Both the position numbers and the translations under genes were made by a program. From the UHGV virus genome UHGV-0246164: a stretch of 35,288 nt of DNA; one strand, written 5' to 3'. Numbering within the stretch: the first letter of the stretch is position 1; every line of letters starts with the position of its first letter. The DNA comes from a virus. Under the pieces are notes generated by a model, which made no database searches, was not told where the DNA came from, and worked only from the letters and a program-made list of their open reading frames with translations. Shown here piece after piece: positions 1,733-30,778 of this stretch.

Positions 1733-2472
1733 TATTGCGGCCCTCCGGTAGTTCCCCCGCCAGTCTGTACTCCGCCATGTTTATGCGTGGCGACACTGAT
1801 ACCAGAAGCTGTTACGTCATTCGTTACCGTCACCGGCCCAAGCATCGTCGCAGTACCGCCGCTTTCGCCCATTCCCTGAGACAGATTGCCATTAATCGTT
1901 ACGTTGCCGTTCAGCGTGATAGTCGGGGATGTGATTGTCGTTCCACCTTCAGCCGTAGCCGTGAGCTGGCCCGGTGTTTGAACGGTGATGTTATGTCCTG
2001 CGGCAACCTCTACGAACGCCGCACCATCATCGGTTCGCAGCTGCGCGGCGCTGGTACTGATACCGCTGATTTTCTGTGCTTGCGACTGCGGGCCAACGAT
2101 GGCGAACGCATCAGATAAGTCATGCTGTCGCGGATCGACGGTCTCCTGAACGCCGCCGCTCTGCCACCAGAAATCGATGCAACGGTCGGCAAAGATCAGT
2201 AGGCACTCGTCGCCTTCTTTTACCGGAAAGGTCAGCGTGCAACCGCCGCCGCGCGGGAAGATAACCGGCACATCCACCAGCGGTTTTAATTCGGTAGAGC
2301 CATCGCCAACAATACCGCGAAGCGCTACCTCTACTGTGCAGGTAACAGTGTCAGGATCGAACGACTGAATGATGCCTGGCATCGCTACGCGCATCTGGGT
2401 AGACACCGAATCGGCTATGGCCTGCGCGGTCTGCTGCTCGCCGCCGATCTGTGATTGAGTTGGAATTGGCAT
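1732..2472 (-). CDS. Baseplate central spike protein (gpV / Mu gp45-like) with Gly/Thr-rich C-terminus
   Basis: 246 aa ORF with a Gly/Thr-rich tail (...TGGGTTGGPQ). GGAG Shine-Dalgarno 7 nt upstream of ATG at 2472. Position in the baseplate cluster. Confidence 0.5.
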   Translation of the reverse strand: MPIPTQSQIGGEQQTAQAIADSVSTQMRVAMPGIIQSFDPDTVTCTVEVALRGIVGDGSTELKPLVDVPVIFPRGGGCTLTFPVKEGDECLLIFADRCIDFWWQSGGVQETVDPRQHDLSDAFAIVGPQSQAQKISGISTSAAQLRTDDGAAFVEVAAGHNITVQTPGQLTATAEGGTTITSPTITLNGNVTINGNLSQGMGESGGTATMLGPVTVTNDVTASGISVATHKHGGVQTGGGTTGGPQ

Positions 2473-2483
2473 AAAAACTCCAT

Positions 2484-2508
2484 AAAAAAACCCGCTCGGC
2501 GGCGGGTT
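2484..2508 (-). terminator. Intrinsic terminator closing the Phd-like/Doc moron
   Basis: On the minus strand: AACCCGC-cgccga-GCGGGTT followed by TTTTTTTATGGAGTTTTTAT. Lies between the doc stop (2531) and the spike gene start (2472). Confidence 0.6.
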
Positions 2509-2530
2509 GTGTACAATTTACTTTTTGCTA

Positions 2531-2938
2531 TCAGTAGCCAGTTATCGTATCTGCCAGCAGCTCATTCTTATAATCTGACAAAAGTTTAAGCGCCAAAGCA
2601 GTGTTATCGCAGTCGGCCTCTCCCGTAGCAGCAAAGATGGTCAGCTTGACTAACTCCATTGAGGTATTCAGTTCATAGCCATTCAAAAGCAAAAACACGC
2701 TGGCGGCCTGGAAAGCCGTTCGCTTATTGGCGTCATTAAAAGCGTGAGACTTCGCTATCGCAACCATGTACATAGCTGCAAATTTAAATAAATCCTCACA
2801 TCCTTCATACATGCGTAAGTTATCGACGCGATTGAGGGCACCTTCGAGTTTTCCCCGGTCTGGTTGTCCGCTATTTGGCAATGTGCTCTTCTGAATAGCG
2901 ATGACCTCATCTACCGAAAGGAATGTAATCTCAGTCAT
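2531..2938 (-). CDS. doc: Doc (death-on-curing) family toxin, Fic/Doc fold
   Basis: 135 aa ORF containing the Doc signature H-x-F-x-D-A-N-K-R (HAFNDANKRTAF). TAATG one-nucleotide overlap with the upstream antitoxin-like ORF. Confidence 0.8.
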   Translation of the reverse strand: MTEITFLSVDEVIAIQKSTLPNSGQPDRGKLEGALNRVDNLRMYEGCEDLFKFAAMYMVAIAKSHAFNDANKRTAFQAASVFLLLNGYELNTSMELVKLTIFAATGEADCDNTALALKLLSDYKNELLADTITGY

Positions 2939-3351
2939 TACTTATCTTCCAGTTTTTTTATGATGTCCGCATGCTTGGTCTGAGTATGTTGCAGAGCTTT
3001 GATAAATGACTCAGACACGCCCTGCAAAGCAACTGCTGCATTAGTGGCCTTCATCATAGTCTGGCGAGCCTCATCAGACTGAAGAAGGGCATCCAATTGC
3101 TTAGTAAGCTTCATGACACCCTCCGTTATCTGTGGTGACAAATTCGATGCAATTAATTGCGCAAGATGCGTGTCTATTGTTTTCGCAGATGTTTTTACCT
3201 CATCTGCGGAAGCGATTTCATCAACTGATTTTGCACTGATGACAAGGTCGGGCTTTCCGCGCTGCGTAACTGTGACGCTTTCACCAGAGCGTAAACAGTC
3301 CAGCGTTGCAGATAAATCCGATCGCATTTGCGTGTAAGTAATGATTTTCAT
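2938..3351 (-). CDS. Phd/YefM-like antitoxin with a long C-terminal extension
   Basis: N-terminus MKIITYTQMRSDLSATL...VTQRGKPDLVISA resembles the Phd/YefM fold. Preferred start is ATG at 3351 with a GAGGG Shine-Dalgarno (the track ORF begins at 3369). About 137 aa against roughly 73 for canonical Phd. Confidence 0.6.
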   Translation of the reverse strand: MKIITYTQMRSDLSATLDCLRSGESVTVTQRGKPDLVISAKSVDEIASADEVKTSAKTIDTHLAQLIASNLSPQITEGVMKLTKQLDALLQSDEARQTMMKATNAAVALQGVSESFIKALQHTQTKHADIIKKLEDK

Positions 3352-3362
3352 GGCACCCTCTC

Positions 3363-3374
3363 TGTACATGTACA
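3363..3374 (-). promoter_or_regulatory. Perfect 12-bp palindrome TGTACATGTACA upstream of the Phd-like start; candidate autoregulatory operator
   Basis: Palindrome read directly from the sequence, about 12 nt upstream of ATG 3351 in an AT-rich stretch. Phd-type antitoxins are known to bind palindromic operators. Confidence 0.4.
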
Positions 3375-3433
3375 GATTAGTGCATAATAAAAACGCGAGA
3401 TCAACGATTATTGATGTTTAAGGATGCGGATCA

Positions 3434-3784
3434 TCATTTCACCTTCACGCAGTCGTATGTTGCATACTGACGCGGCGCATCCATGCTGGCTTGCAACCAC
3501 TGTGCGTTGAGAATGGCTTTGCCGTTGCGCTTGATGTACTCAAGCCCAACCCAGCGGCCGGGTTGGTCGGTTGCAACCATCCATTCTGCTTTCATGTTTT
3601 GGTAGTCATCTTTAGACTTGAGAAAAGACATTTTTTGCGTTTCAGGTTTTACCCCGTTAATAAGCATTAGTCCTTCTTTGCCCGCAGTGAGGCGATACGG
3701 CCCGCACTGAGTATCAGCTAAGGCCTCTGACGTGCCGACAACTGATAAAAGAACACCACAAATTAGAAGTTTGGCCTTACCCAT
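3434..3784 (-). CDS. Small secreted (periplasmic) protein of unknown function
   Basis: 116 aa ORF with an N-terminal signal peptide (MGKAKLLICGVLLSVVGTSEALA then DTQCG) and a second Cys near the C-terminus. Overlaps the hub gene stop by 22 nt. Looks lower in GC than the flanks by eye. Confidence 0.55.
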   Translation of the reverse strand: MGKAKLLICGVLLSVVGTSEALADTQCGPYRLTAGKEGLMLINGVKPETQKMSFLKSKDDYQNMKAEWMVATDQPGRWVGLEYIKRNGKAILNAQWLQASMDAPRQYATYDCVKVK

Positions 3785-27148: not shown

Positions 27149-27994
27149 TCACTCCTGCGCCCATGAAGGCATTTCAGTTTGCCCGTAATCTTTGGCGGCA
27201 AAGTTTTCCTGCATAGCTCGCTGCTGCGGCCTCGGTTGAGATTTCCCCTTTGGAGTCTTGGGTTCAAAAATCCCCTGCCAACCACTGGCGATGCTCTGGT
27301 TTATAATTTCTTCAGGTGTATATCCCTTCTCCAGACTTCTGCTTAGAACGTTGATAGCCTGAGTGACGCTTTGCTTAGACTTGATCGACTTACCTATCTC
27401 CTTGCGATAGGTAACCCACGACAACCATGTTTCTGCCGATAACCAATCAGGCAACTCTGTTTCTAGCGGGTCGAACTTCTGAGAAATTTTTTTGGGGGAT
27501 ATAGGGGGTTTATTAATATTTTCTTTTGTCTTTAAAGAATGTCTTTTGTGTGTCTCTAACTTCGAGACATTGAGTGTCTCTAATTTGGAGACATTTTTTG
27601 TCTCTAACTTCGAGACAAAGTTGCTAACTTGGAGACACTTGCTGAATTGCCACGCAGATACCTCCCTGTTTACACCGATTTGATTTCCATCCATAAACAG
27701 GCAATTCATTGAAATCAGTTCTTTTTTAGCCTTGTTAACATTCTGCCTTGATAGTCCTGTTAACTGAGCAATTTGCTCATCGGCTATTCGATCTGTTTTC
27801 TTATTGAATCCATATGTTTTCCGGACGTAGGCCAGCATAACTTTCAACTGGCGAGCGGTTAAATCGGCACTTGCGATAGCTTCCAGCAGCTCGTTAGCGA
27901 ATCTGGTGTAACCATCATCGATATCAGCCACTCTTAGCTCCTGTTCGGCAAAGTTACCTCTGCCGAAGTTGAGTATTTTTGCTGTATTTGTCAT
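27149..27994 (-). CDS. O: Replication initiator O-like protein (lambda O-type N-terminal domain)
   Basis: MTNTAKILNFGRGNFAEQELRVADIDDGY... resembles the lambda O N-terminus. The gene contains four iterons translated as VSKLET repeats. The C-terminal part differs from lambda O. Confidence 0.75.
   Translation of the reverse strand: MTNTAKILNFGRGNFAEQELRVADIDDGYTRFANELLEAIASADLTARQLKVMLAYVRKTYGFNKKTDRIADEQIAQLTGLSRQNVNKAKKELISMNCLFMDGNQIGVNREVSAWQFSKCLQVSNFVSKLETKNVSKLETLNVSKLETHKRHSLKTKENINKPPISPKKISQKFDPLETELPDWLSAETWLSWVTYRKEIGKSIKSKQSVTQAINVLSRSLEKGYTPEEIINQSIASGWQGIFEPKTPKGKSQPRPQQRAMQENFAAKDYGQTEMPSWAQE
27551..27636. repeat. Origin of replication iterons (4 x 18 bp) inside the O gene
   Basis: GTCTCTAACTTCGAGACA at 27551 and 27599, GTCTCTAATTTGGAGACA at 27575, GTTGCTAACTTGGAGACA at 27619. 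Each has internal dyad symmetry. An AT-rich tract lies at 27480-27550. Confidence 0.7.
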
Positions 27995-28026
27995 AATGAC
28001 TCCTGTGGATTGATCCAGTAATGACC

Positions 28027-28320
28027 TCAGAATTCCATCTGGATTTGTTCAGAACGCTCGGTTGCCGCCGGGCGTTTTTTATTGGTGAGAATCGAAGCAA
28101 CTTGTCGTGCCAATCGAGCCATGTCGTCGTCGACGACACCCCATTCAAGAACAGCAAGCAGCATTGAGAACTTTGGAATCCAATCCCTCTTCCACCTGCT
28201 GATCTGCGACTTATCAACTCCCACAGCTTCCGCTGTCTTCTCAGTTCCAAGCATTGCGATTTTGTTAAGCAACGCACTCTCGATTCGTAGAGCCTCGTTG
28301 CGTTTGTTTGCACGAACCAT
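28027..28320 (-). CDS. cII: CII transcriptional activator (lambda-type)
   Basis: From ATG 28320: MVRANKRNEALRIESALLNKIAMLGTEKTAEAVGVDKSQISRWKRDWIPKF..., essentially lambda CII as I recall it. Upstream RBS TAAGGAAATACTTACAT also as in lambda. Confidence 0.9.
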   Translation of the reverse strand: MVRANKRNEALRIESALLNKIAMLGTEKTAEAVGVDKSQISRWKRDWIPKFSMLLAVLEWGVVDDDMARLARQVASILTNKKRPAATERSEQIQMEF

Positions 28321-28399
28321 ATGTAAGTATTTCCTTAGATAACAATTGATTGAATGTATGCAAATAAATGCATACACCACAGGTGTGGTTTAATTTGAT

Positions 28400-28431
28400 G
28401 CCCTTTTTCAGGGCTGGAATGTGTAAGAGCG
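28400..28431 (-). promoter_or_regulatory. nutR (boxA + boxB) N-utilisation site
   Basis: Minus strand reads CGCTCTTACACATTCCAGCCCTGAAAAAGGGC, matching lambda nutR boxA/boxB (from memory). Lies between cro and cII. Confidence 0.8.
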
Positions 28432-28439
28432 TTGATAAC

Positions 28440-28670
28440 TTAAGCAGCCATTAATTCAGGCCAGATGCTTTCCCAATCAACCGGATGAAGGTCTTTGCGA
28501 GTCACTTCACCATTGCTGAACTTCTCAATCAGAACACAAAGTGCTGCGCCCAATTCATGATTACGGCTAAGTGCTTTCCTCAAATAGCCGATAGAAGTTC
28601 CGCACTTGGTGGCAAATTCTCTCTGCTCTTCCAGTGAAAGGGAGTTCAGATACAAGCGGAGTTCTTCCAT
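28440..28670 (-). CDS. cro: Cro-like HTH repressor (not lambda Cro)
   Basis: 76 aa with HTH-like segment (EFATKCGTSIGYLRKAL). Divergent from cI across the operator region. AGGAG Shine-Dalgarno upstream. Confidence 0.6.
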   Translation of the reverse strand: MEELRLYLNSLSLEEQREFATKCGTSIGYLRKALSRNHELGAALCVLIEKFSNGEVTRKDLHPVDWESIWPELMAA

Positions 28671-28702
28671 TTGCTATCTCCTTCCCGTTGTTGAATAAGG
28701 TG

Positions 28703-28772
28703 AGTTTACCTGCAGGTAAAAAACAAATCAATACCCACAGGTTATTTACCGATAGGTAATCAAAGATAGAAT
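28703..28772. promoter_or_regulatory. OR region: three operator-like sites with divergent pR and pRM
   Basis: Sites TACCTGCAGGTA (28707-28718), TACCCACAGGTTA (28732-28744), TTACCGATAGGTAA (28746-28759). Candidate pR on minus: TTGATT, 17 nt, TAAACT. Candidate pRM on plus: -10 TAGAAT at 28767-28772, 6 nt before the cI ATG (leaderless). Confidence 0.55.
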
Positions 28773-28778
28773 TAAATC

Positions 28779-29465
28779 ATGGATAAATACGAACAAAGAC
28801 GACTAAGGCTGATAGAGATAAGAGACCGATTCTGTAATGGAAAGGCCTCAGAGTTGGCTCGTCGAATAGAAAGGGAACCATCATACGTTTCCAGAATGCT
28901 GTATCCGGAAGGAAAAAGCGGAAAAAAACGCATTGCTGACGATATGATGGAACTAATTGAAAAATCTTTTAATCTCCCACGCGGATGGATGGACATGCTT
29001 GCAGATAGCAAAGTTGGATCTGCAGACCATCTTGAGTTTGCGGGTAACGTTCGTGCGGGTTTTGTTCCGGTAATTGGTGAAGCCGTTTTGGGAGTTGATG
29101 GCTCAGTGGATATGATTGAATTCAGATCCGGTTGGTTAAGCATCTACAGTGGCGATAAAGATGCTTACGGTCTGAAGGTTAAGGGTGACAGCATGTGGCC
29201 AAGGATTCAGTCAGGAGAATATGTTGTTATTGAACCAAATACGCCAGTACATCCAGGTGATGAAGTCTTTGTAAGGACCAAAGATGGTCATAACATGATA
29301 AAGATCATGAACAAAACAAGAGACGGAGACTATCAGTTTAGTAGTATAAACAGCGATCACCGTCCAATCACTCTTCCTGTTGAAGAAGTTGATAAAATGC
29401 ATTTTGTTTCAGCTATTGTGAAACACACTAGGTACGTAGACCAGGACGATCTGCCAAAATTTTGA
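28779..29465 (+). CDS. cI: CI-type prophage repressor (HTH plus S24 LexA-like autopeptidase domain)
   Basis: 228 aa with a candidate Ala-Gly cleavage site (NVRAGF), catalytic Ser in GDSMWP and a downstream Lys (RTKDG). Divergent from cro. Not lambda cI. Confidence 0.8.
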   Translation: MDKYEQRRLRLIEIRDRFCNGKASELARRIEREPSYVSRMLYPEGKSGKKRIADDMMELIEKSFNLPRGWMDMLADSKVGSADHLEFAGNVRAGFVPVIGEAVLGVDGSVDMIEFRSGWLSIYSGDKDAYGLKVKGDSMWPRIQSGEYVVIEPNTPVHPGDEVFVRTKDGHNMIKIMNKTRDGDYQFSSINSDHRPITLPVEEVDKMHFVSAIVKHTRYVDQDDLPKF

Positions 29466-29479
29466 GGATAAAGCAGCAA

Positions 29480-29776
29480 ATGTTTATACCAGGTATAGTG
29501 GTCGCTGTTGTAATCATCTGCTTCATATGGGCAAAGTTATCTCCTGTAAGCTCTAAGCATACAGCTGAACTCATGAAGAAGAAGCATCTTATACATGAGG
29601 CAGAAACGATAATTAAGAAGTTCAAAGGCATGTCATATGACGACATGTCATCAGATCAGATTGCTATGTATAAATGCGCCATTGAGCGTCTTGACTACTT
29701 AAACGGACTCAAACCCAAACACACCCCGGTAGAATCAAAATTGCCGCAATGGCCAAGCAATCCAAATAGCTTCTGA
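29480..29776 (+). CDS. Single-pass membrane protein co-transcribed with cI (rexAB position)
   Basis: ATG 29480 with GAGGA 11 nt upstream (an in-frame TTG at 29462 overlaps the cI stop). N-terminal hydrophobic segment FIPGIVVAVVIICFIWA, then an 80 aa charged domain. Terminator follows. Confidence 0.55.
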   Translation: MFIPGIVVAVVIICFIWAKLSPVSSKHTAELMKKKHLIHEAETIIKKFKGMSYDDMSSDQIAMYKCAIERLDYLNGLKPKHTPVESKLPQWPSNPNSF

Positions 29777-29787
29777 CATCTCCTTTC

Positions 29788-29810
29788 AGCCCGCAAAGCG
29801 GGCTTTTTTA
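29788..29810 (+). terminator. Intrinsic terminator ending the cI operon
   Basis: AGCCCGC-AAA-GCGGGCT followed by TTTTTTAT, 12 nt after the membrane protein stop. Confidence 0.75.
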
Positions 29811-29830
29811 TATCAATCCAAAAAATTAAT

Positions 29831-29914
29831 TACCTGAAAATTCAAACAGGTAAACTCTCACACCAATTTTATTTACCTGCAGGTATAGACAACAGTTTTA
29901 CCTGTAGGTATATT
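29831..29914 (+). promoter_or_regulatory. OL operators and candidate pL promoter
   Basis: TACCTG-n10-CAGGTA (29831-29852), TACCTGCAGGTA (29874-29885), TACCTGTAGGTA (29899-29910). Candidate -35 TAGACA (29886-29891), 17 nt, -10 TATATT (29909-29914). Confidence 0.55.
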
Positions 29915-29954
29915 TTAAGCCATCAGCAGGACGCACTAACCACCATGAAGGTGA

Positions 29955-29985
29955 GGCTCTTAAAAATTAAGCCCTGAAGAAGGGC
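29955..29985 (+). promoter_or_regulatory. nutL (boxA + boxB)
   Basis: GGCTCTTAAAAATTAA followed by GCCCTGAAGAAGGGC, matching lambda nutL (from memory). Confidence 0.8.
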
Positions 29986-30253
29986 AGCATTCAAAGCAGA
30001 AGGCTTTGGGGTGTGGTGAAGCCAGCTAGTCACTGGCAAGTGCTTACCTACTGTTGAGCGGTGAAGCGCTCCCAACGCTAGCAATAGCGTGGACGAGATG
30101 GGGAGCCGCGGGCGATAAGGCCGCCATAACGCGCACGTTGTCGCATGGAAAAATCGCTGGGGTGCCGGTTATACCCCTCCGAATGAGACTCAACAAGCTG
30201 GAGCTAGACTACCAGCCACCACACCACCAAAGCTAACTGACAGGAGAATCCAG

Positions 30254-30586
30254 ATGGATGCACAAACACGCCGCCGCGAACGTCGCGCAGAGAAACAGGC
30301 TCAATGGAAAGCAGCAAATCCCCTGTTGGTTGGGGTAAGCGCAAAACCAGTTAACCGCCCTATTCTCTCGCTGAATCGCAAACCGAAATCACGAGTAGAA
30401 AGCGCACTGAATCCAATAGACCTTACAGTGCTGGCTGAATACCACGAACAGATTGAAAGCAACCTGCAACGTATTGAGCGCAAGAATCAGCGCACATGGT
30501 ACAGCAAGCCACGCAGTGAAATGGGGGTGACTTGTGTTGGTCGCCAGAAAATGAAATTAGGCAGTAAGCTACTGTATGAGGGGTGA
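30254..30586 (+). CDS. N: Antiterminator N (lambda-type)
   Basis: MDAQTRRRERRAEKQAQWKAANPLLVGVSAKPVNRPILSLNRKPKSRVESALNPIDLTVLAEYH..., near-identical to lambda N as I recall it, including the Arg-rich boxB-binding motif. AGGAG Shine-Dalgarno. Confidence 0.9.
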   Translation: MDAQTRRRERRAEKQAQWKAANPLLVGVSAKPVNRPILSLNRKPKSRVESALNPIDLTVLAEYHEQIESNLQRIERKNQRTWYSKPRSEMGVTCVGRQKMKLGSKLLYEG

Positions 30587-30589
30587 GAT

Positions 30590-30778
30590 ATGCATAAATG
30601 TCAGTTCTGTGGATACATGTTTGAATCAAATGAAATGCAACGTATTTCGTTAAACCTTATCGGTAGGCCATACAACATTTGCCTAGGATGTAGCGAGAAA
30701 TACAAAAACAAAGACATGTGGGACGACAATAAAAACGATATCGACTGGAATAAAGTGCCATGTATTGATGATAGTTAA
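30590..30778 (+). CDS. Small zinc-ribbon-like protein (CxxC...CxxC) in the ral position
   Basis: 62 aa with C4/C7 and C31/C34 pairs. AT-rich. Begins 4 nt after the N stop. Confidence 0.45.
   Translation: MHKCQFCGYMFESNEMQRISLNLIGRPYNICLGCSEKYKNKDMWDDNKNDIDWNKVPCIDDS

Follow-up and report, generated by a model that had tools for sequence, protein, structure and literature searches.

A lambdoid prophage region that is very probably an immunity module of the mEp043 type, and its predicted TTACC-N4-GGTAA operators

Coliphage mEp043, isolated in the 1990s, is assigned an immunity group of its own in the passage of PMC3442831 that cites Kameyama 1999. Lambda operators are 17 bp long (TATCACCGC type), with site spacings of 24 and 23 bp. 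Those of 933W are 15 bp long (CGTAC-N5-GTACG type, e.g. CGTACTTTCAGTACG). The 933W repressor and operators were studied in the Koudelka laboratory, and a passage of this work reports that the repressor does not bind adjacent sites cooperatively (PMC3317979). The OR of SfV carries GTACC-N5-GGTAC. The Rep repressor of Salmonella phage SPC32H carries a C-terminal domain for tetramerisation and antirepressor binding, and it is Ant, not S24 self-cleavage, that inactivates it (PMC9638917, PMC9986798).

The window is the whole stretch of DNA that was analysed (35,288 nt). Its region 28400-29985 is very probably the immunity (lysis-lysogeny) module of a lambdoid prophage and belongs to the mEp043 immunity type. 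It aligns with mEp043 DNA at 97% identity across the full 1586 bp. The mEp043 records are JQ182734, NC_019706 and PV340537 (genus Aguilavirus). At the same identity, mEp043 and the window are collinear over about 28400-30590 (cro, OR, cI, downstream ORF, terminator, OL, pL, nutL, N leader and N). Cro is 100% identical to that of the mEp043 contig (L036). CI residues 1-76 are identical; the five amino-acid differences (residues 77, 79, 81, 82 and 228) fall in the linker and C-terminus, none in the DNA-binding domain. All operator arms are identical and in the same positions, whereas the central 4 bp of OR1, OR2, OR3 and OL2 and bases between sites differ. As it shares its operator arms, its Cro and its CI DNA-binding domain with mEp043, the prophage should be homoimmune with that phage; heteroimmunity is expected towards lambda, 434, 933W and others. 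A match to a well-known immunity type was named in the original prediction as a result that would refute it. This applies in part: the cI/cro pair and operators match an already defined and sequenced type, so that by this comparison the specificity is not new, though mEp043 is not a well-studied model. Its operator sites were apparently undescribed before: a literature search for mEp043 operators found no paper describing them, and one with the dyad sequences returned unrelated primer matches only. Two mEp043 records, in which the c-1 clear-plaque mutation was sought, are identical over the 9.6 kb compared.

Table 1. Features of the immunity region and its flanks. Positions are those of the window. 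Promoters, operators and the CII site are candidates.
Feature	Positions	Strand	Description and evidence
cII	28027..28320	-	Lambda type, right-hand flank of the cassette; Pfam Phage_CII E 1.7e-48; 96/97 aa identical to lambda cII
pRE CII site	28298..28311	+	TTGC-N6-TTGC, toward cI; pattern match, function inferred from lambda
nutR	28400..28431	-	Right-hand recombination junction; boxB GCCCTGAAAAAGGGC 28400-28414; boxA CGCTCTTA 28424-28431
cro	28440..28670	-	76 aa, YdaS-like HTH protein; phrog_35; Pfam YdaS_toxin weak, below curated cut-off
pR	28703..28731	-	TTGATT-17-TAAACT; pattern match, 8/12, below scan cut-off
OR1	28705..28720		TTTACCTGCAGGTAAA, perfect 16-bp palindrome over pR spacer and -10; arms at least 95% conserved in 52 OR variants
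OR2	28730..28745		AATACCCACAGGTTAT, degenerate right arm; abuts pR -35, centre at -41.5 of pRM
pRM	28745..28772	+	TTTACC-16-TAGAAT; promoter scan, 9/12; -10 ends 6 nt before cI ATG
OR3	28745..28760		TTTACCGATAGGTAAT, covers pRM -35 and spacer; pattern and conservation
cI	28779..29465	+	Repressor, 228 aa; HTH N-terminal domain (1-76), linker, S24 autocleavage domain; Pfam Peptidase_S24 E 1.4e-17
98-aa ORF	29480..29776	+	Downstream of cI; N-terminal hydrophobic segment; phrog_10450 E 1.3e-55 (unknown function)
Intrinsic terminator	29788..29810	+	End of cI operon; terminator prediction
Long palindrome	29830..29853		TTACCTGAAAATTCAAACAGGTAA, TTACC-N14-GGTAA; operator-type arms, N14 instead of N4 between TACC and GGTA
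OL2	29874..29885		TACCTGCAGGTA, directly upstream of pL -35; pattern and conservation
pL	29886..29914	+	TAGACA-17-TATATT; promoter scan, 10/12
OL1	29899..29910		TACCTGTAGGTA, over pL spacer and -10; pattern and conservation
pL transcript start with nutL	29921..30015	+	Lambda-like, 98% lambda; boxA GGCTCTTA 29955-29962; boxB 29971-29985
N-leader segment	30016..30206	+	Replaces lambda's; alignment
N antiterminator	30254..30586	+	Lambda type; Pfam N36 E 1.7e-26; 94/101 aa (93%) identical to lambda N

The region resembles lambda in gene order, divergent cI/cro, a tripartite OR, operators overlapping pR, pRM and pL, a presumably leaderless cI mRNA, gene(s) co-transcribed with cI, and near-identical nutR-cII and nutL-N flanks. 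It differs in the DNA-binding parts of CI and Cro, which are unrelated to lambda's, in its operators (12-16 bp, TTACC-N4-GGTAA), in its site spacings (25 and 15 bp), in having only two canonical OL sites plus an N14 element, and in its replaced N leader. DNA matching lambda covers 27801-28431 (91% overall, 97-100% from about 27940), 29921-30015 (98%) and 30207-30555 (93%). The non-lambda cassette, with the divergent cro/cI pair, spans 28433-29920 and has no DNA homology to lambda. The right break of homology (about 28431-28433) lies inside the shared nutR (28398-28432), nine bases past the cro stop; the left break (29920/29921) lies at about pL +1. Alignment thus places the sharp breaks expected around cro and cI at about 28432/28433 and 29920/29921. 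The proteins between them are, as had been claimed, unrelated to lambda's: CI has only a faint similarity in the S24 domain (E 4e-5) and Cro none. The original prediction of a heteroimmune lambdoid with its own operator family agrees with this cassette and its dyads, heteroimmunity being expected. Its description of nutR, cII, nutL and N as lambda-identical is right for the boxB sequences of nutR and nutL and nearly so for cII and N (Table 1), but the N leader and the boxA of nutL (GGCTCTTA, not CGCTCTTA) are not lambda's. The N-leader allele is common to Sf6, HK446, HK544, HK633, mEp213 and mEp043. Antitermination of the lambda N/nut type is indicated by boxA and boxB in both nutR and nutL and by the N36 match of N.

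The boxA/boxB segment of nutR is identical in lambda, mEp043 and the window; the window follows lambda leftward of it and mEp043 rightward. On the cII side of nutR the window has lambda cII, but mEp043 carries a cII of the P22-C1/ST64T type and its replication genes are different. A counterpart of the CII site is annotated in mEp043. In the ECONIH4 E. coli prophage the cassette is 100% identical and the flanking replication genes are different, and in other E. coli prophages the same cassette is joined to different right-hand neighbours. The exact cII-cro junction of the window occurs in only 4 of 5426 genomes. An Rfam scan of the whole window gave no family at the gathering threshold.

CI combines an N-terminal HTH with a C-terminal S24 domain that has a GDSM motif (residues 136-139, Ser138), Lys175 and candidate Ala-Gly cleavage sites at 88/89 and 93/94. 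The AlphaFold2 model of the N-terminal domain (pLDDT 91) places the HTH at residues 23-40. Its best match among solved folds is SPC32H Rep (PDB 5d50/5d4z; query-normalised TM 0.81, 24% identity), followed by XRE-type C proteins; SPC32H Rep lacks the S24 domain of the window CI. The C-terminal region (about 85-221, linker end and S24) is about 65% identical to 933W-type CI by alignment inspection, the whole alignment is 49% identical, and the N-terminal domain is unrelated. By these alignments CI is a domain chimera of a family-specific HTH domain and a 933W-like S24 domain. The window and 933W also share the number of canonical OL sites (two). Their operators differ, and the relationship to 933W immunity is confined to the C-terminal domain. 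The CI of SfV, cdtI and Stx2c phages is 39% identical to the window CI in its N-terminal domain. The TACC/GGTA half-site core is common to SfV and the window, but the SfV spacing is N5, not N4, flanking bases differ, and the recognition helix of these repressors differs (PTQTSRFM versus PSYVSRML in the window). SfV-type immunity is expected to be different. By its homologues, the CI N-terminal domain is one of a widespread family of HTH domains not covered by Pfam; C-terminal domains of at least three kinds are found attached to it, and short (about 137 aa) S24-less relatives exist. Cro matches the PDB Cro chains 8c7k/8co2 (E about 3e-10), an entry for which a literature search found no paper. 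The 98-aa ORF occupies the position of lambda rexAB, is also found in mEp043 and has no Pfam, NCBIfam or PADLOC match. NCBIfam and PADLOC were uninformative for CI, Cro and the small ORFs.

The dyads proposed originally for OR and OL are all present at or near the places given for them: TACCTGCAGGTA at 28707-28718 and 29874-29885, TACCGATAGGTA at 28747-28758 and TACCTGTAGGTA at 29899-29910. A degenerate fifth dyad, TACCCACAGGTT (28732-28743), had been missed. The strict 13-mer TTACCNNNNGGTA (TTACC-N4-GGTA) has six strand matches corresponding to four sites, all in OR or OL. Shuffles give 0.11 +/- 0.40 expected matches, and none of 100 reaches six. Across the window, the looser TACCN4GGTA shows no enrichment when one mismatch is allowed (12 matches, 5.8 expected). 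Significance is reached by the stricter pattern and by the clustering only. Cro and cI are divergent and separated by 108 bp, which holds three dyads overlapping candidate pR and pRM; two dyads 25 bp apart lie over pL (29874-29914), with nutL and N downstream.

Relatives of the CI N-terminal domain number 307 in viral contigs (IMG/VR), and the loci of 80 of them were fetched. In the 52 distinct OR variants (median identity 59%) the arms of the three OR sites are kept while centres and spacers vary. The site logos are partly motif-selected. An unsupervised alignment of these variants, which addresses this, places almost all columns that are at least 95% conserved in the arms; the others are single positions near pR/pRM and the ATG. 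The sites lie at -73, -48 and -33 from the cI ATG, and the weak right arm of OR2 is a feature of the whole family. The OL pair is 25-26 bp apart in 51 of 52 variants. The sites recur at unchanged offsets in prophages of Paraburkholderia and Stenotrophomonas, whose CI N-terminal domains are 61% and 40% identical. TTACC-N4-GGTAA sites are missing where the repressor combines a 933W-like C-terminal domain with another N-terminal domain. Across these loci, the predicted operator specificity tracks the CI N-terminal domain. The predicted operator code is TTACC-YRYR-GGTAA, with three sites in OR and two in OL.

The dyads overlap hexamers of pR, pRM and pL, as had been claimed; pL and pRM were retrieved by the promoter scan and pR by pattern only (Table 1). 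Across the family, the CAA of the pR -35 and the TA of its -10 are conserved. pL is annotated as putative PL in mEp043, and the loci of Paraburkholderia and Stenotrophomonas share its layout. In 41 of 52 variants a TAnnnT hexamer is found 6-7 nt ahead of the cI ATG, and 1 of 52 has an SD-like 4-mer before cI, which supports the leaderless cI mRNA of the original prediction.

From identities, junctions, site statistics, conservation pattern and domain architecture, all read from the sequence, we infer binding, occupancy order, activation at OR2, leaderless initiation and cross-immunity. A CI dimer would bind the 14-16 bp dyads (TTACC-YRYR-GGTAA) through its HTH N-terminal domain. OR1 would cover the pR -10 and spacer, OR2 would abut the pR -35 and OR3 would cover the pRM -35 and spacer; the OL dyads, 25 bp apart, would bracket the pL -35 and overlap its -10. 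CI on OR1/OR2 and OL1/OL2 would shut off pR and pL. At OR2 it probably stimulates pRM, and at OR3 it would repress it. The centres of OR2 and OR3 are separated by 15 bp, and as 16-mers the two sites share one base, so their simultaneous occupancy is uncertain. The predicted pRM transcript is a leaderless cI mRNA that includes the 98-aa ORF. Cro, a small and unrelated HTH protein, presumably binds the same sites. RecA-stimulated self-cleavage of CI (LexA/S24-type C-terminal domain) would induce the prophage. The lambda-like logic (cooperativity, OR2 activation) is an analogy.

Other readings of the cassette have to be weighed. A specificity carried by no described phage could be suggested by operator sequences absent from the searchable literature and by a CI N-terminal domain that has no match in Pfam or NCBIfam and nothing significant in a PDB sequence search. 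It is highly improbable: the whole region is 97% identical to a phage that forms an immunity group of its own, Cro and the DNA-binding domain of CI are the same in both, and the region is carried by 52 of 5426 complete E. coli genomes (about 1%) and by many IMG/VR contigs. Neither is it at all likely that the TTACC/GGTAA blocks are promoter elements or recombination scars. TTTACC is indeed the pRM -35, and the TA of a GGTA arm forms the start of the -10 in both pR and pL, but conservation extends to both arms of every dyad, even where an arm lies outside any hexamer (OL2 right with OL1 left, OR3 right). Strict two-fold symmetry and fixed N4 spacing are not promoter properties, and the same motif occurs five times in two regions 1.2 kb apart. 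CI binding and Cro binding cannot be separated by conservation, since nearly all loci have cro linked to the CI N-terminal domain. The co-occurrence of cro with the dyads, as tight as that of the CI N-terminal domain, would suit a reading in which Cro (or Cro and another factor) binds the dyads and CI recognises something else in the region. We consider this very unlikely, since locus L101 has the CI N-terminal domain and canonical dyads without a detectable Cro homologue, a Proteus locus with a 42% Cro homologue and a different CI N-terminal domain has an OR without dyads, and OR has no other conserved dyad. To our knowledge, CI and Cro share operators in all lambdoid switches studied. Binding of the dyads by CI is preferred.

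The long palindrome upstream of OL2 is a separate question. Compared with the five canonical operators, its half-sites are separated by an extra helical turn. Of 69 distinct OL variants, 47 have it, in every case 21 nt upstream of OL2; the subfamily whose OL spacing is 26 bp lacks it, as do the loci of Paraburkholderia and Stenotrophomonas. The chances are about even that it is one of three things: a third left operator of extended geometry, an upstream promoter of pL2 type under repressor control, or a site for a host factor. The operator-type arms and the fixed position favour such readings, and the layout parallels pRM, where hexamers coincide with operator arms. The loci that lack the element count against them. 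A LexA (SOS) box, CTGT-N8-ACAG at 29834-29849, was considered and rejected: the right CAG is CGG or GGG in many relatives, so that CTG-N10-CAG is not conserved, while the TTACC/GGTAA arms stay conserved where CAG is lost. As an IHF site the element has the exact consensus in none of the 47 variants, though it may have near-consensus matches. As a pL2-type promoter it would read ATTACC-16-TAAACT with an A-rich UP-like tract, the repressor acting through the arms, but the -35 candidate is poor. As an operator it meets the objection that half-sites 19 bp apart should be out of reach of a compact HTH dimer. An extended third left operator could be bound by one flexible dimer or by subunits that belong to two dimers. 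That the palindrome is either such an operator or an upstream promoter with its -35 and -10 on repressor half-sites is a tentative and rather doubtful proposal. If true, either would add a previously undescribed type of operator to the lambdoid switches.

By these alignments the region is ordinary lambdoid mosaicism, in which an immunity cassette has been swapped by way of linker sequences conserved at nut and pL. The chimeric structure of CI matters for induction behaviour, its cleavage domain being 933W-like. The long N14 element is conserved, newly pointed out and cheap to test. The operator family of the mEp043 group is now defined by comparative evidence as TTACC-N4-GGTAA, and relatives reach the Burkholderiales and Xanthomonadales.

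The region belongs to an immunity group defined before and sits in a slightly different lambdoid backbone. Coliphage mEp043, one of the Mexican E. coli phages (Kameyama et al. 1999), represents its own immunity group (PMC3442831; PMC9836094). Along all its 1586 bp, the immunity stretch matches mEp043 (three records) at 97% identity; the mEp043 annotation of the stretch lists Cro, cI/prophage repressor, a hypothetical protein and a putative PL. Collinear identity runs from about 28400 to 30590, cro through N. Cro is identical in both; the CI proteins differ only at residues 77, 79, 81, 82 and 228, none in the DNA-binding domain. The immunity specificity is therefore not new and, judging from these sequences, the prophage should be homoimmune with mEp043. 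The original prediction, a heteroimmune lambdoid, was right in its description and in its mechanistic reading; the cassette is that of the mEp043 group.

Features of the immunity region and its flanks (the standard lambda map is reversed relative to the window orientation).
Feature	Coordinates	Strand	Remarks
O-type replication gene	27149-27994	minus	putative 24-bp iterons
cII	28027-28320	minus	
nutR	boxB 28400-28414; boxA 28424-28431		
cro	28440-28670	minus	
cro-cI intergenic region			108 bp
OR1	28705-28720		perfect 16-bp palindrome; over pR spacer and -10
OR2	28730-28745		adjoins pR -35; centre 41.5 bp upstream of proposed pRM start
OR3	28745-28760		over pRM -35 (TTTACC = OR3 left arm) and spacer
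cI	28779-29465	plus	
98-aa ORF	29480-29776	plus	
Intrinsic terminator	29788-29810		
AT-rich region	29830-29914		bears further dyads and pL
OL2			directly upstream of pL -35
OL1			overlaps pL spacer and -10
nutL	29955-29985		
N-leader segment	30016-30206		191 nt, between nutL and N
N	30254-30586		

BLAST against lambda (J02459) gives three blocks, 27801-28431, 29921-30015 (98%) and 30207-30555 (93%), and no match between 28432 and 29921. Identity in the right-hand block, taken in 30-bp bins, stays at 93-100% between about 27940 and 28419. In a three-way alignment the boxB-boxA segment (28398-28432) is identical in lambda, mEp043 and the window; to its left the window tracks lambda, to its right mEp043. 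The right junction is thus inside nutR, and the left one falls in the first bases of the pL transcript. Short conserved linkers are known recombination places of lambdoid modules, and the sharp homology breaks expected on either side of cro and cI lie in such linkers. The cII of mEp043 is of the P22-C1 type, whereas that of the window is of the lambda type, and the exact cII-cro junction of the window is common to only 4 E. coli genomes. In other E. coli genomes, cII-cro homology breaks recurrently at about 28318 (cII start/pRE region) and about 28398 (nutR boxB), a pattern suggesting that recombination on the cassette's right side prefers two points.

The flanks had been called lambda-identical. 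This holds closely for the proteins (cII, 96 of 97 aa; N, 94 of 101) but not for the N leader, which is different, nor for the first base of nutL boxA, G in the window and C in lambda. This base is the sole variable position among otherwise near-identical nutL regions (boxA 29955-29962: GGCTCTTA in the window, TGCTCTTA in mEp043, CGCTCTTA in lambda). The N leader, from nutL to the N ribosome-binding site, has 191 nt versus about 100 nt in lambda, and 19 phage records contain this allele at 100% identity, among them Sf6, Sf101, HK446, HK544, HK633, mEp213 and mEp043. Its flanking sequences, GGCUUUGGGGUGUG and CACACCACCAAAGCU, also occur in lambda; they pair with each other in the predicted fold (z = -3.8), closing the insert. 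In lambda, the corresponding region presumably holds the RNase III-sensitive leader hairpin. The segment has no match in Rfam.

At least 80% of the region is carried by 52 of 5426 complete E. coli genomes, and the same cassette is found with differing neighbours in different prophages. In E. coli ECONIH4 (NZ_CP026399.1 5270150-5276735), a cassette 100% identical to that of the window is flanked by replication genes unlike the window's, among them a DnaB-like helicase gene. The cassette is thus found in a second, different backbone, possibly a decayed one. An ISSpu7-family transposase lies about 1.5 kb beyond N.

All predicted dyads are present in OR (between cro and cI) and OL (at pL): TACCTGCAGGTA at 28707 and 29874, TACCGATAGGTA at 28747 and TACCTGTAGGTA at 29899. 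A fifth, degenerate dyad missed by the prediction, TACCCACAGGTT, is added at 28732. A loose 12-mer with one mismatch shows no window-wide enrichment (12 matches, 5.8 expected). The 13-mer TTACCNNNNGGTA has 6 strand matches at 4 sites (0.11 expected; no shuffle reaches 6), all in the two control regions. An independent promoter scan gives pL (TAGACA-17-TATATT, 10/12) and pRM (TTTACC-16-TAGAAT, 9/12); pR (TTGATT-17-TAAACT, minus strand, 8/12) was found by pattern and conservation. In all three, an operator arm forms a hexamer. Lambda CI activates pRM from a site centred like OR2. By analogy with lambda, pR and pL would be repressed via the operators, pRM would be activated from OR2, and cI would be autorepressed at OR3. 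Joint occupancy of OR2 and OR3 is uncertain since their centres are only 15 bp apart. The pRM -10 stops 6 nt short of the cI ATG. Of 52 OR variants, 41 have a TAnnnT hexamer 6-7 nt before this ATG and only one has an SD-like motif, which supports the proposed leaderless cI mRNA.

Several lines of comparative evidence argue that the dyads are operators. Between the window and mEp043, OR/OL substitutions fall in the central four bases of dyads or between sites, never in arms. GTDB genomes searched with CI yielded 23 loci. TACC-N4-GGTA is absent upstream of the repressor in those sharing the C-terminal domain only (Citrobacter, Erwinia, Pantoea, Photorhabdus, Proteus, others). Two distant loci with the N-terminal domain do have it, one in Paraburkholderia xenovorans (identity 61%) and one in a Stenotrophomonas (40%), at -72/-74, -47/-49 and -32/-34 from the ATG; in both loci two downstream dyads, 25 bp apart, enclose a TTGAC -35. 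An IMG/VR scan with the N-terminal-domain alignment gave 307 relatives, of which 80 were fetched. The comparison set comprises 52 distinct OR sequences with a median identity to the window of 59%. Their dyads cluster at -73, -48 and -33 from the cI ATG; the downstream pair is 25-26 bp apart in 51 of 52 variants, the exception being a truncated contig. In a motif-blind OR alignment, columns at least 95% conserved lie almost all on OR1 TTACC/GGTAA, OR2 CAATACC..GG and OR3 ATTTACC..GGTA; the few remaining ones are isolated positions close to the ATG and to pR/pRM. Pooled, the sites give the consensus T-T-A-C-C-Y-R-Y-R-G-G-T-A-A. The OR2 right arm is degenerate family-wide, and the OR3 centre is atypical, purine-rich.

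Of 92 loci examined, 80 have a divergently linked Cro homologue, which nearly all loci with another N-terminal domain lack. In locus L101 the N-terminal domain and the dyads are retained with no detectable Cro; in one Proteus locus, a distantly related Cro homologue occurs with neither an mEp043-type N-terminal domain nor OR dyads. Together, these two loci weakly favour CI as the determinant.

A Peptidase S24 match (E 1.4e-17), GDSM (Ser138) and Lys175 mark the cleavage domain of CI, which also has two candidate Ala-Gly sites. Its stretch of about residues 85-221 is roughly 65% identical, in an alignment inspected by eye, to 933W-type CI, whose N-terminal 80 residues are unrelated and whose operators are different 15-bp sites. 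Conversely, relatives whose N-terminal domain shares 72-83% identity with that of the window have C-terminal domains with an identity of only 20-35%, or are short (about 137 aa) and lack S24. The repressor is therefore a domain mosaic. Many relatives are of the short type (L022, i.e. Paraburkholderia xenovorans LB400 chromosome 1, locus 2151-3470; L079; P0005-P0014); their OR and OL dyad architecture is that of the window. They would be non-cleavable repressors, possibly under antirepressor control as in SPC32H. The CI N-terminal domain has no sequence match in Pfam, NCBIfam or PDB; it matches phrog_5736 and phrog_27486. Its AlphaFold2 model (pLDDT 91; 28 sequences in the alignment) has predicted helices at 3-18, 23-29, 34-40 and 54-63; among solved structures, the SPC32H Rep repressor matches the model best (TM 0.81) and XRE-type controller proteins come next. 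The Cro protein, YdaS-like with an HTH, is related to two solved 'phage antirepressor Cro' chains (8c7k, 8co2; E about 3e-10). SfV-type CI has an N-terminal domain 39% identical to the window's, and the annotated SfV operator region contains GTACC-N5-GGTAC; the TACC core is therefore common to a wider superfamily.

A long palindrome, the N14 element (29830-29853, TTACCTGAAAATTCAAACAGGTAA), has operator arms, but its TACC and GGTA are separated by 14 bases instead of 4. Of 69 distinct OL variants, 47 conserve it (arms, internal TGAAAwTTCAA, upstream A-tract, downstream GGTAAACTTTT), invariably 21 nt upstream of OL2; all these loci have 25-bp OL2-OL1 spacing. It could be an extended-geometry operator or an upstream pL2-type promoter: its plus strand, after an A-rich tract, reads ATTACC-16-TAAACT, a design that the window's pRM shares. 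It could also be a host-factor site; a LexA-like CTG-N10-CAG is not conserved among OL variants, and the element contains no exact IHF consensus.

The 98-aa ORF, straight after cI and ahead of the terminator, takes the place of lambda rexAB. It has a hydrophobic N-terminal segment (MFIPGIVVAVVIICFIWAKL), matches phrog_10450 (function unknown) and has no match in Pfam, NCBIfam or PADLOC. It is a candidate membrane protein expressed in the lysogen, with a possible role in exclusion or defence. The O-type gene contains three 24-bp tandem repeats (TTGTGTGTCTCTAACTTCGAGACA; 27546-27617), encoding a repeated VSKLET motif, which are probably origin iterons as in lambda ori.

The region is a textbook mosaic, not a new system. 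What is new is modest: the comparative definition of an operator family and its architecture, the repressor domain chimera and the conserved N14 element.
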